From positions 1 to 53,246 of the forward strand of contig JAJXVV010000005.1 in the NCBI GenBank assembly GCA_021781955.1: a stretch of 53,246 nt of DNA, given 5' to 3'. The position numbers and the translations under genes were made by a program. The stretch is from a bacterium. GTDB taxonomy: Bacteria > Patescibacteriota > Minisyncoccia > Phycocordibacterales > UBA2100. Below, one piece after another: positions 24,491 through 53,115 of this stretch. Position 1 is the first letter of the stretch; the number at the start of each line of letters is the position of its first letter. Under the pieces are notes generated by a model. The model worked only from the letters and a program-made list of their open reading frames with translations, had not been told where the DNA came from and made no database searches.

Positions 24491-25552
24491 TTAACTCTGT
24501 ATCGCTTTCATCATATCATCGACGAGATGCGAGATGCTTACCTTCTCACGAGCGATGCTCTGCAATCGATCCCGTACGACTGGAATATCGGGCCGTTCGC
24601 AGAAGTTCACGATTCTTTGTGCAAGTTCTTTCGCATCACCGAACGGGTATATAAACTGGTCAGCGAGATCGTCAAAATACTTGCGAAAACCCTCGTTAGC
24701 AACGAAGGTGGGCATACCTTTTGCTGTACTCTCAAGCACTGCTTTGTCGATCCCTCCCGTTGGACCGGCATTGACTGCAAAGTCATACTCGGCCAACAGC
24801 TGTGGCAAATCGCTATTCTTAATACTCCCGCGAAATGAAATGATACCTTCAAGCTGGAGGGTTCGTACGAGAGTGAGGAGCATTTCTTTGTAAACTGAAT
24901 CCTGAGCGGTAACGGGATCACCCACGAAATCAAGACGTGCCAAGATCCCGTTCACCCGCAACTGTCTCAGTGCACGGATGATCGTCTCCAAATGTTTGAT
25001 CGGTGTGATCCGCCCTACGCTAATTACGCGAGGACTGATCACGTCAATGGCCTTTAGCGGTGTGTCCTGATATACAGCAACGTCGATCCCATGCCCGACA
25101 TAGTGCGCTTTCGTCGTGATGAGACGCAGCGATTCGGGCGTCGAGGTAAAGATAGCGTCAACGAGCCGCGCGGCGACGCGCAGCCGCCAGGTGACTTGCC
25201 GGTGCACGTACCACAGCGCGATCCGCTTCCTCCTCAGCTTCCACCACCATCCGCCGAGCACCACGTACTCGGGATTCATGTGCACGAAGACTGCGTCGTA
25301 TTCACTCCGGAGCTCCCACATGAAACGATAGAAGTTGAGCACGTACTTGATGCGCGAGGCGCCGGACTCTTTCCCTAAACTGTGCACGTGCACGGTGGGG
25401 GGCAGCGCGTGCCTCCCCTCTTTGAGGCAGACCACTTGCACCTGCCCGCAATGCGTCGCGAACTCTTCGATCCAGCGGTGGAAGAACCCGAGCACCGGGT
25501 CGTCGAGGTCGACCGCTTGGGTGAGTATCAACAGCCGCATTTTTTTGTTCAT
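24491..25552 (-). CDS. Glycosyltransferase family 4
   Basis: LLILTQAVD, VFVHMNPEY, VGHGID, SVGRITPIKHLE, GGIDKAVLE. Confidence 0.9.
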   Translation of the reverse strand: MNKKMRLLILTQAVDLDDPVLGFFHRWIEEFATHCGQVQVVCLKEGRHALPPTVHVHSLGKESGASRIKYVLNFYRFMWELRSEYDAVFVHMNPEYVVLGGWWWKLRRKRIALWYVHRQVTWRLRVAARLVDAIFTSTPESLRLITTKAHYVGHGIDVAVYQDTPLKAIDVISPRVISVGRITPIKHLETIIRALRQLRVNGILARLDFVGDPVTAQDSVYKEMLLTLVRTLQLEGIISFRGSIKNSDLPQLLAEYDFAVNAGPTGGIDKAVLESTAKGMPTFVANEGFRKYFDDLADQFIYPFGDAKELAQRIVNFCERPDIPVVRDRLQSIAREKVSISHLVDDMMKAIQS

Positions 25553-25595
25553 TGACTTTTCATTCGCCTCCGTATAATTAACATACTGAACCTCG

Positions 25596-25617
25596 AAGGC
25601 CGGGTAACCGGCCTTTT
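25596..25617 (+). terminator. GC hairpin with GTAA tetraloop and short T run
   Basis: AAGGCCGG-GTAA-CCGGCCTT followed by TT. Confidence 0.55.
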
Positions 25618-25648
25618 GAATGTATCACAAGTTGCCCGCGCATCTTCC

Positions 25649-25676
25649 TTGACAGTTCATGCGGTTTCGGTATCAT
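25649..25676 (+). promoter_or_regulatory. Sigma70-type promoter pointing into the 3' end of the NYN gene
   Basis: TTGACA (25649-25654), 16 nt, TATCAT (25671-25676). The -35 box and spacer length are the same as in the 16S promoter in this window. Confidence 0.7.
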
Positions 25677-25682
25677 GTGCTC

Positions 25683-25741
25683 TGTAACCATGAAAAGGCG
25701 TGCCGAAGGGTTCTGTCCCTAGGGGCGCCTTTTCGTTTTTT
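25683..25741 (+). ncRNA. Candidate ~60-nt small RNA antisense to the NYN gene 3' end; 5' end inferred
   Basis: Directly follows the promoter. Hairpin GAAAAGGCG (25692-25700) / CGCCTTTTC (25726-25734) with inner AGGG/CCCT stem, then GTTTTTT. Overlaps the NYN stop codon and last seven sense codons. Confidence 0.55.
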
Positions 25742-26225
25742 CGAGTAACCCTTCATCATCTAAAGACTCGAGATAATCGAGATATCCGCCTGCTGCTTTC
25801 CGCAATAAATACGAACAACGTCGACGCTGTACTGCGATAACAGCGCGTAGTTTCTTCTGCACGACCCAATACTGCACGAGCGGAGCAAAATCACCGTCGC
25901 TTGATATGAGAACAGCCTTCTCGTATTCTCTAAACCGCAAGAGAGCATGCAAAGTCAGTAATACGTCGACATTTCCTTTTACTGTGCCGGTATGGTCACG
26001 CGAGACTTCTTTAAAGATCAATTCGTAACCGCAGGTGCGCAAACGTTTATACATTCCCTCGTTCGTCGCCACGTACCCAAAAAATACGAACGCGCGGGAC
26101 ACACCATACGTTTCTGCTAGATGTACGCGGAAACGCGAATAATCCATATCCCAGCCGAGCGACTTCAAGCCGAGGTATAGATTCTGTTCATCGATGAATG
26201 CGTAATTGTTTCGACCCCCGCGCAT
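25719..26225 (-). CDS. NYN-domain (LabA/DUF88, PIN-like) putative ribonuclease
   Basis: NYAFIDEQNL, KGNVDVLL, LISSDGDFAPLV (four acidic PIN/NYN-type residues); markedly AT-richer than its upstream neighbour. Confidence 0.9.
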   Translation of the reverse strand: MRGGRNNYAFIDEQNLYLGLKSLGWDMDYSRFRVHLAETYGVSRAFVFFGYVATNEGMYKRLRTCGYELIFKEVSRDHTGTVKGNVDVLLTLHALLRFREYEKAVLISSDGDFAPLVQYWVVQKKLRAVIAVQRRRCSYLLRKAAGGYLDYLESLDDEGLLEKTKRRP

Positions 26226-26234
26226 CGACCTATT

Positions 26235-27152
26235 CTAACGCTTTTTCCGCTTCGCGGCCTGCAAGTGCTTCTTGACCACCGCCTTGCCGTACACGCCCTC
26301 CAAAAGATCGATATCTTTGTTCGTGGCGGTGAGGAGCTCGATGTTCTTCGCCTCCATGGCTTCGAGCACCTTCAGCGCGTGCTTGTCGGCGGGCAGGTGC
26401 CTCTTGAAGTGGCGGCGCAGCGCCGCAATGTCCTTGATGAAACAGCCGCCGCCCGCGCCGCGTCCGCTCTTGTGCACCGGGTTGGAGTAGCGATTGGAAA
26501 TGAGCGGATCGGCCTGAATGGCGCGATTGACGACGTCCCAGCTTGCGTCGAACTGCTGCGCGAGGTCGTACATGAGATTGAAGAGGATGACCTGCGTGTA
26601 GCCGCTCGCGTTGTGCGTGTATTTGAATATCTCGGCTTCCGCGCTCTTGCAGATGGCGGCATGGCCAGCCTTGGGGAGCACTTTCATGACTCGCTCGGCC
26701 GCGAGGAAGTGCTTGGCGTCGGACACGGGCATGCCCACGAGATTGACGAACGGATGCGCCGCGTCGTGCACGTGCGAGACGATGGAGAGGAACTCGGGAT
26801 TGAAGAGGATCGTGATGCGCGGGAACTTCTTCTGGAGCACCTCCGTCGTGCCGGGCAGAATGGTGGATTTGATGACCGCGACCTTCCCCTCGCCCACGAG
26901 CGGCAGGACGCTCTGGATCACCGAGCTATCGAACCCTGCGGGCGTAGTCGGCGTCCACACCGCGATGAAGACGATGTCGCATTCCTTTATCTTGTCCTTG
27001 TTCTTGACCCACGGCTTTTCGAGGGAGTAGCGCACGACCTCGTAGCCGCGCTCCTCGAAATTGTCGGCGTACGCCTTTCCGATCCATCCCTGGCCGATGA
27101 ACCCGATGAGCGGTTTTTTGCTTTTCTTGGCCGCCATAATGATGGGCGACAT
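26235..27152 (-). CDS. UDP-glucose/GDP-mannose dehydrogenase-family protein, short form
   Basis: IGFIGQGWIG, VIKSTILPGTT, FNPEFL, AEIFKYTHN, GAGGGCFIKD; TAATG coupling to the upstream gene. Confidence 0.85.
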   Translation of the reverse strand: MSPIIMAAKKSKKPLIGFIGQGWIGKAYADNFEERGYEVVRYSLEKPWVKNKDKIKECDIVFIAVWTPTTPAGFDSSVIQSVLPLVGEGKVAVIKSTILPGTTEVLQKKFPRITILFNPEFLSIVSHVHDAAHPFVNLVGMPVSDAKHFLAAERVMKVLPKAGHAAICKSAEAEIFKYTHNASGYTQVILFNLMYDLAQQFDASWDVVNRAIQADPLISNRYSNPVHKSGRGAGGGCFIKDIAALRRHFKRHLPADKHALKVLEAMEAKNIELLTATNKDIDLLEGVYGKAVVKKHLQAAKRKKR

Positions 27153-51289: not shown

Positions 51290-52750
<1,461 letters not shown>

Positions 52751-53087: not shown

Positions 53088-53115
53088 AGTATAGTCGCGG
53101 GCAAGTCGCTGTCAA
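53088..53115 (-). promoter_or_regulatory. Sigma70 rrn promoter
   Basis: TTGACA (53115-53110), 16 nt, TATACT (53093-53088), upstream of the 16S leader. Confidence 0.82.

Follow-up and report, generated by a model that had tools for sequence, protein, structure and literature searches.

A small RNA gene convergent with an NYN nuclease gene: a conserved pair and candidate RNA-antidote cassette in Patescibacteria

Results

The window analysed here is the whole of contig JAJXVV010000005.1 (53,246 nucleotides; our contig C11) from an ultra-small bacterium, whose 741-kb, 12-contig genome is of Patescibacteria type with about 60% G+C (assembly GCA_021781955.1). Midway along it lies a gene for an NYN-domain nuclease, and on the opposite strand a promoter points at a hairpin that covers the end of this gene. 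A first-pass annotation, made from the letters alone, had proposed that the two form a toxin-antitoxin or abortive-infection unit of one protein and one RNA. Our results indicate that nuclease gene and RNA gene are a self-contained, conserved pair, which upholds the structural half of that proposal; the evidence for a toxin-antitoxin function is circumstantial. The features that carry the argument are the following.

25649-25676, plus strand: small-RNA promoter, TTGACA (25649-54), 16-nt spacer and TATCAT (25671-76), agreeing with the consensus at 11 of 12 positions
25683-25741, plus strand: predicted small RNA of ~58 nt, made up of a single-stranded tail at the 5' end, then a long hairpin and a U-tract (from the covariance model R1 and folding)
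25683-25695, plus strand: 5' tail UGUAACCAUGAAA, a diverged version of the family motif (R)AUCACNAYG-AAAAG (from alignments)
25690-25736, plus strand: hairpin, a bidirectional intrinsic terminator (from folding and the consensus structure)
25708-25719, plus strand: apical element GGG-UUCUGU-CCC, the window copy of the GGU-YYY-GUCC loop with its closing pairs (from the seed alignment)
25719-26225, minus strand: gene for an NYN nuclease (LabA/DUF88-like, PF01936) of 168 aa, the putative toxin (from the open reading frame [ORF], Pfam and the fold)
26232-26237, minus strand: -10-like hexamer TAGAAT, 6 nt 5' of the NYN ATG, a leaderless-type promoter (from sequence)

The small RNA gene in the window

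The ends of the small RNA are predictions, its start being placed from the -10 box and its end from the U-tract. Its promoter has the same -35 hexamer and spacing as the rRNA promoter (TTGACA-16-TATACT), a likeness already recorded in the first-pass annotation. Both strands of the 741-kb genome hold 24 sites of the form TTGACA-N15-18-TANNNT, against about 7 estimated by chance, and most of these precede genes or RNAs. The hairpin region starts ~7 nt past the -10 box and is made up of an A-rich 5' flank, an outer stem, internal loops, an inner stem and a U-rich 3' flank, followed by UUUUUU up to 25741. The NYN stop codon (25719-21) falls inside the hairpin, and the RNA overlaps the stop and about the last seven codons of the gene, again as had been described. 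Predicted folding energy is -29.4 kcal/mol on the plus strand (z -4.8) versus -22.3 kcal/mol on the minus strand, and a terminator is recognisable on either strand, with AAAA before the stem and UUUU after it. However, a bidirectional terminator alone leaves the promoter, the loop and the tail unexplained.

R1, a covariance model of this RNA, matches the window at 25676-25739 on the plus strand with 42.8 bits (E 7e-7 in 475 kb), versus 5.6 bits on the minus strand. Rfam 15 gave nothing at gathering score in the window, and a permissive scan of the window and of one homologous locus (L077) returned chance-level matches of at most 18 bits. The loop apex, in the window (25708-25719) and in the family, may also be viewed as a UYYG tetraloop that is closed by a U-U mismatch and sits on two G-C pairs; we take it to resemble the helix 35 hairpin of 16S rRNA, GGGUUAAGUCCC.

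Conservation of the RNA across homologous loci

Conservation was assessed at 98 NYN loci. Of these, 18 came from relatives. The other 80 were picked, on contigs from one genome per species, out of a set of confirmed relatives that numbers at least 523 and spans Patescibacteria, Chloroflexota, Omnitrophota, Acidobacteriota, Elusimicrobiota and other phyla. R1 was built on a seed alignment of 68 sequences with a consensus structure from RNAalifold. It matches the strand opposite the NYN gene in 93 of the 98 loci, at 22-78 bits, and the NYN-sense strand at no more than 31 bits. The order of elements is the same in nearly all loci: TTGAC(A/T), a 16-17-nt spacer, TAnnnT, 6-9 nt, (R)AUCACNAYG, an A-rich stem half, covarying stems, the GGU-YYY-GUCC apex, a U-rich stem half and a U-tract. 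The conservation of promoter and covarying hairpin among homologues, put forward as the decisive check in the first-pass annotation, is thus borne out and extends to the 5' tail and the U-tract. A promoter matching the consensus at 10 or more of 12 positions lies at the expected upstream distance in 72% of 95 loci versus 0.8% of control windows from the same loci.

Several measures point to selection on an RNA structure. Compensatory changes occur in 13 of the 15 consensus pairs identified by RNAalifold; 89.7% of cells are paired, whereas sliding the 3' partners leaves no more than 65% paired; double-change cells number 138 versus 46.5 +/- 5.5 in shuffles; and the covariation score is 0.456, the shuffles giving 0.249. 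Six columns of the seed alignment are invariant (G33, G34, T35, G39, C41 and C42), and both loop-closing pairs are GC in all 68 sequences. G-U cells outnumber A-C cells by 97 to 24 on the promoter-driven strand, which is therefore the strand under structural selection. A protein-coding origin of this conservation could be rejected, because the position of the NYN stop codon is not fixed: it ranges between 122 nt ahead of the RNA span and 62 nt within it.

The RNA also has variant forms, among them 'GGACUACCAAAGGG', 'CCUAAGGUUUCGACCG' and 'GAGGGAGAAACGA...ACGUG', and the element common to all of them is the AUCAC tail motif. The window has a single copy; tandem copies, two in each case, are seen at few loci only (L073, G408, G091 and G236). 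In evolutionary terms the RNA gene is real, as judged by its promoter, its structure, its strand and its terminator.

The NYN gene and its product

The 168-codon ORF, whose start codon is predicted, matches Pfam NYN (PF01936) over residues 10-150 with an E value of 2e-15 and 58 bits, the cut-off being 24.2. Residues D12, N15, D87, D110 and D112 do not vary across an alignment of 23 sequences, so that the acidic motifs noted in the first-pass annotation are indeed intact, and the same D-N-D-D-D pattern is present in 90 of 95 RNA-linked loci. An AF2 model of the protein (pLDDT 91) has a PIN-like alpha/beta fold; the nearest folds in Foldseek are 2QIP (E 9e-10) and the NYN domains of MARF1 (6FDL and 5YAA, E about 1e-5), and a match to T5 flap endonuclease is weak. 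With its catalytic residues intact and a modelled fold that matches the active MARF1 NYN RNase, the nuclease looks active.

No Shine-Dalgarno sequence precedes the NYN ATG in the window. The layout is TAGAAT-aggtcg-ATG, and the TAG within the hexamer is the stop codon of the upstream dehydrogenase-like gene. A TANNNT hexamer ends 4-10 nt before the NYN ATG in 39 of 86 homologous loci versus 12% of random positions, and a Shine-Dalgarno-like sequence is found in only 6 of the 86. The 3' end of the 16S rRNA (51290-51305, minus strand) reads ...GGAAUCAUUCAAAA, without the CCUCC anti-Shine-Dalgarno, which fits the rarity of Shine-Dalgarno sequences and the leaderless-type starts of NYN genes.

Distribution of the pair, stand-alone RNAs and RNA-less NYN genes

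Among 61 relatives, the RNA occurs where this NYN subfamily occurs (one genome, G003, has five copies, each of them paired), and genomes without the subfamily are without the RNA, the exception being G049 with a single orphan copy. A distant NYN paralogue (~200 aa, 29% identical; G000:C9:80689-81126) occurs in almost all genomes of the genus and the order and has no RNA; it is probably a housekeeping NYN.

An even set of 401 genomes was used to sample the phylum. The NYN family was found in 121 of these genomes and R1, under strict filters, in 64. An adjacent R1 match was present at 46 of the 121 strongest NYN loci. Since R1 covers only part of the RNA variants, 60 further loci were inspected by eye: 43 had the same architecture with variant inner stems, and 17 had no RNA. 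By these counts ~84% of the 106 NYN-family loci examined are paired with an RNA, and the cassette is present in about 16-30% of the sampled genomes. The RNA-less genes fall into about four clades (4 state changes on the tree versus 14-17 in shuffles), several of which have longer ORFs extending past the NYN domain. Loss of the active site was considered as the explanation for the missing RNA and rejected; all 17 RNA-less genes keep D-N-D-D-D, and the test does not discriminate.

RNA genes are also found alone. About 16 genuine stand-alone copies, scoring up to 69 bits, lie behind unrelated housekeeping genes (orphan loci L102, L103, L104 and L185-L200); most have a recognisable promoter, some retain 40-55-aa remnants of the NYN C terminus, and other RNA genes adjoin NYN pseudogenes. 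Within the RNA-linked clades, by this comparison, the RNA persists after the nuclease gene is lost, and loss in the opposite order is rare; such a pattern would be expected if losing the RNA first is costly. Linkage of NYN and RNA is tight within these clades, and the pair behaves as a cassette.

A tblastn search of 50,697 phage records found no close homologue of the NYN protein. Plasmid matches were to alphaproteobacterial NYN genes that are ~30% identical, and the three loci checked all lacked the RNA. In IMG/VR, 14 NYN loci were found, only 2 of them with an R1 match. There were also 33 exact 16-mer matches, about the number estimated by chance, of which only one was a full RNA. Five IMG/VR contigs (L219, L220, L231, L235 and L242) share an identical partial R1 match, to a hairpin, of 27.6 bits at model positions 21-56.

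An insert in the glycan operon

The first-pass annotation had described the NYN gene as an AT-rich insert in a glycan operon, and this description holds. G+C content is 0.47 across the NYN gene versus 0.60-0.68 in the flanks, and in 12 of 13 same-genus relatives (L172-L184) the site is empty, the dehydrogenase-like gene directly adjoining the glycosyltransferase gene. Since these flanking genes abut in the relatives, the segment between them in the window is an insert into a tight operon junction. It is bounded by the stop of the dehydrogenase-like gene at 26235 and by the homology-supported start of the glycosyltransferase gene at 25540. The insert and an additional feature within it are listed below.

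25541-26234, no strand: insert of ~690 bp holding the NYN gene, the RNA gene and an extra hairpin (from the empty-site comparison and the G+C dip)
25552-25617, plus strand: second promoter-like site and short hairpin (from sequence; R1 gives only 7.1 bits, so that membership in the family is uncertain)

The second site consists of TTGACT, a 15-nt spacer and TATAAT (25552-25578), followed by a GGCCGG-GUAA-CCGGCC hairpin and UUUU, and abuts the start of the glycosyltransferase gene. It was rejected as a second copy of the RNA, the 7.1 bits not being significant; it may represent a second RNA unit that has decayed or is minimal, or it may have no relation to the RNA. The glycosyltransferase itself probably starts, by homology, at the ATG at 25540 on the minus strand (MRLLILTQ...) rather than at 25552. 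Upstream of this ATG (25540-25565, minus strand) are a GGAGG and then a 4-codon mini-ORF (MKSQ and a stop) that overlaps it as ATGA.

There is no small ORF partner next to the NYN gene in the window, and no neighbouring protein family or mobile-element gene is conserved across the 98 loci, the largest family being found in 7 of them. The earlier statement that no protein antitoxin is adjacent therefore stands. Elsewhere in the window, the contig end (53100-53246, minus strand) encodes ...LIDWLIWYNAERPHEALSLRTPLS, just upstream of the rRNA promoter (~53088-53115); this resembles the C terminus of an rve-type transposase or integrase.

Discussion

Our favoured reading, which we regard as probable by a narrow measure on the sequence evidence, is that the NYN protein is an RNase toxin and the small RNA its antidote. 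The patchy, multi-copy, cassette-like spread of the pair and the existence of lone RNA genes provide circumstantial support for a toxin-antitoxin system. Transcription, toxicity, neutralisation and its mode are what we infer from the arrangement. The locus would be a self-contained two-gene cassette, with an NYN-fold ribonuclease made from a leaderless-type mRNA and a convergent small RNA of ~58 nt driven by its own near-consensus sigma-70 promoter. The shared hairpin would terminate transcription in both directions, and the two transcripts would therefore be complementary over about 45-50 nt at their 3' ends. An abundant small RNA would act as a dedicated antidote that keeps the nuclease harmless, and loss of the RNA, or a drop in its level, would free the RNase. 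Neutralisation could proceed as in type I systems, the RNA base-pairing to the hairpin at the 3' end of the NYN mRNA and leaving that mRNA open to decay. Also or instead, it could proceed in a type III-like manner, in which case the RNA, a hairpin with a 5' tail, would be a pseudo-substrate that NYN binds by way of the conserved AUCAC tail and the invariant GGU-YYY-GUCC loop.

The first-pass annotation had left the choice between type I and type III to experiment. The layout is type I-like and the type III layout is absent. Neither the invariant loop nor the AUCAC tail, however, is needed for cis-antisense pairing, and the NYN mRNA is expected to end at the tail or before reaching it. Loop and tail suggest instead that a protein recognises the RNA, as in type III, and this protein would most simply be NYN itself.

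Among type I systems, par(pAD1) with Fst RNA I/RNA II, and txpA/RatA and bsrG/SR4 of Bacillus subtilis, likewise consist of a toxin gene and a convergent small RNA that overlap at their 3' ends. The RNA of these systems has its own strong promoter, there is no protein antitoxin, and in par one bidirectional terminator is common to both transcripts. In all three, the RNA promotes decay of the toxin mRNA. At the level of sequence the NYN-linked RNA is likewise a cis-encoded gene complementary to the 3' end of the mRNA, yet its candidate toxin is a soluble nuclease of 168 aa, not a small membrane peptide, and its loop and tail are conserved across phyla. A small hydrophobic peptide of less than ~60 aa is the usual type I toxin, SymE and RalR being nuclease exceptions. 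SymE/SymR and RalR/RalA resemble the NYN pair in having a nuclease-type toxin with a small RNA in place of a protein antitoxin. However, SymR overlaps the 5' end of its target and blocks translation whereas the NYN-linked RNA overlaps the 3' end; RalA is trans-encoded and Hfq-dependent; and the folds of SymE and RalR are unrelated to NYN and the phylogenetic range of these systems is narrow.

Type III systems (ToxIN, CptIN and TenpIN) share with the NYN pair an endoribonuclease, a short, structured and sequence-conserved RNA, the absence of a protein antitoxin, mobility as a module and, occasionally, tandem RNA copies. Their RNAs are same-strand tandem repeats that lie upstream of the toxin gene and are processed by the toxin, whereas the NYN-linked RNA is convergent and 3'-overlapping: it lies downstream on the opposite strand in the window and in the 93 loci, and the window has no tandem repeat array. 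The NYN fold is also unlike that of the ToxN/AbiQ-like type III toxins. VapBC offers a further parallel, a PIN-like metal-dependent RNase in a small, mobile, multi-copy module, but the VapBC antitoxin is a protein encoded upstream in the operon and the partner of NYN is an RNA. Lastly, the DUF3800-associated RNA motifs (Weinberg et al. 2017, PMC5737381) are structured, terminator-bearing RNAs, all linked to a single protein domain whose role is unknown. Like the NYN-linked RNA, they occur in several phyla, on either strand and in several structural variants per protein family. They have no fixed convergent 3' overlap, whereas the NYN-linked RNA is convergent; the protein families differ; and the DUF3800 motifs are in Rfam whereas the NYN-linked RNA is not. 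The survey of 224 motifs that described them (PMC5737381) does not mention NYN, and our full-text literature searches found no paper linking NYN to a partner RNA. The pairing of an NYN nuclease with a partner RNA is new in that it was not found described in Rfam 15 or in the literature searched, in agreement with the first-pass annotation, which knew of no NYN system with this layout.

Several observations weigh against a toxin with an RNA antidote. About 16% of the NYN-family loci examined (17 of 106) have no RNA and yet keep the active site, which indicates that the NYN fold is not intrinsically RNA-dependent. At a few loci (L044, L061 and L062) the hairpin is without the conserved loop. The NYN pair has neither the small membrane peptide that is typical of type I toxins nor the same-strand repeats typical of type III RNAs. 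Unlike par, the NYN-linked RNA has no second contact site at the 5' end that we could find: for duplexes of the RNA tail with the 5' end of the NYN mRNA, the energy was -6.32 kcal/mol for cognate and -6.38 kcal/mol for non-cognate partners (p = 0.68), and a contact of the par/Fst type was therefore rejected. HEC-09, the only NYN defence candidate tested in the literature, gave no phage protection.

In PADLOC the NYN protein has weak matches to PDLC01154 'NYN' (E 1.8e-7) and to HEC-09 (E 3.7e-5). NYN.COG1432 (PF01936, 2QIP) is entered as 'function unknown' in a 2017 classification of PIN-like domains, outside the toxins of toxin-antitoxin systems.

We also considered whether the AUCAC tail mimics GAUCACC at the 3' end of 16S rRNA, and rejected this. 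The 16S rRNA of this genome ends in GGAAUCAUUC and cassettes of the same genus still carry AUCACC; there is therefore no co-variation, and mimicry is only a remote idea.

The best-surviving alternative, which we nevertheless consider unlikely, is that the RNA assists NYN, as its cofactor, activator or scaffold, or serves as its natural substrate, and that the two form a ribonucleoprotein enzyme with a cellular or anti-invader role. The invariant loop and AUCAC tail, which point to specific recognition by a protein, and the tight linkage of NYN and RNA would be equally expected of such an enzyme, and the DUF3800 motifs, RNAs tied to one protein domain and of unknown function (PMC5737381), provide a precedent. 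It is odd, however, for the cofactor of an absent enzyme to persist as promoter-bearing RNA genes in places where NYN is missing; whole NYN clades work without the RNA; and a cofactor has no need of a convergent overlap with the mRNA.

Ordinary cis-antisense tuning of a non-toxic NYN, by effects on mRNA stability or by the prevention of read-through and with no role in addiction or defence, we hold to be improbable. A convergent overlap of ~45-50 nt with a shared bidirectional terminator is what such tuning would use, and NYN/LabA proteins do have housekeeping or regulatory roles in some organisms. Yet pairing needs no conserved sequence, whereas here the loop and the tail are conserved across phyla, and neither the patchy, multi-copy, insert-like distribution nor the orphan RNAs with promoters would be expected of a local regulator.

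It is far less probable that the hairpin and its flanks are a DNA-level signal for mobility (a site of recombination or nicking, for example) and NYN the nuclease that mobilises the cassette. The pair does behave like an insert, has spread in multiple copies and is often near contig ends, and PIN-like folds include DNA flap nucleases, although the match to T5 flap endonuclease is weak. However, no terminal repeats or target duplications were seen, the element is at only one end of the gene, and the G-U-biased covariation and the promoter argue for an RNA. The proposal that the hairpin is merely a bidirectional terminator, with a chance or vestigial promoter and no functional small RNA, accounts for the A-tract, the U-tract and folding on both strands but is close to refuted by a near-consensus promoter at fixed distance in 72-92% of loci versus 1-6% of controls, the invariant loop, a 5' tail motif outside the stem, the strand asymmetry (42.8 versus 5.6 bits; G-U to A-C, 97 to 24) and orphan copies that retain the promoter.

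If the favoured reading of toxin and antidote is correct, the cassette may go beyond the known types. We put forward, as a tentative and, in all its parts jointly, rather doubtful proposal, that it represents a new class of RNA-antidote system that is neither type I nor type III. A LabA-like NYN ribonuclease would be held inactive by a directly bound RNA of ~58 nt, built as a 5' tail plus hairpin and recognised as a pseudo-substrate through its AUCAC tail and GGU-YYY-GUCC loop. The RNA would come in several co-evolving structural subtypes, and the small Patescibacteria genomes would often carry the cassette. When a new cassette comes in, orphan RNA genes would counter it in trans, as elements of anti-addiction or immunity.

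In summary, we describe a small RNA gene with a covarying structure that is paired, in a convergent and overlapping arrangement, with the gene of a putative NYN ribonuclease. The RNA is a new family for annotation of the Rfam type, and the cassette marks insertion hot spots inside operons. Known RNA-antitoxin systems involve mostly peptide toxins (type I) and ToxN-like RNases (type III); if the favoured reading is true, a PIN-like nuclease would be added to these, in a hybrid layout that combines convergent overlap with a sequence-conserved RNA of the kind recognised by proteins. As the cassette is only about 650 bp long, it is directly testable in Escherichia coli. The pair is frequent in the Candidate Phyla Radiation, whose members have small genomes, few recognised defence or addiction modules and no genetics. 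Critically, bacterial NYN/LabA proteins (PF01936) are a large family with thousands of members, and a covarying partner RNA provides the first concrete handle on one big branch of it.

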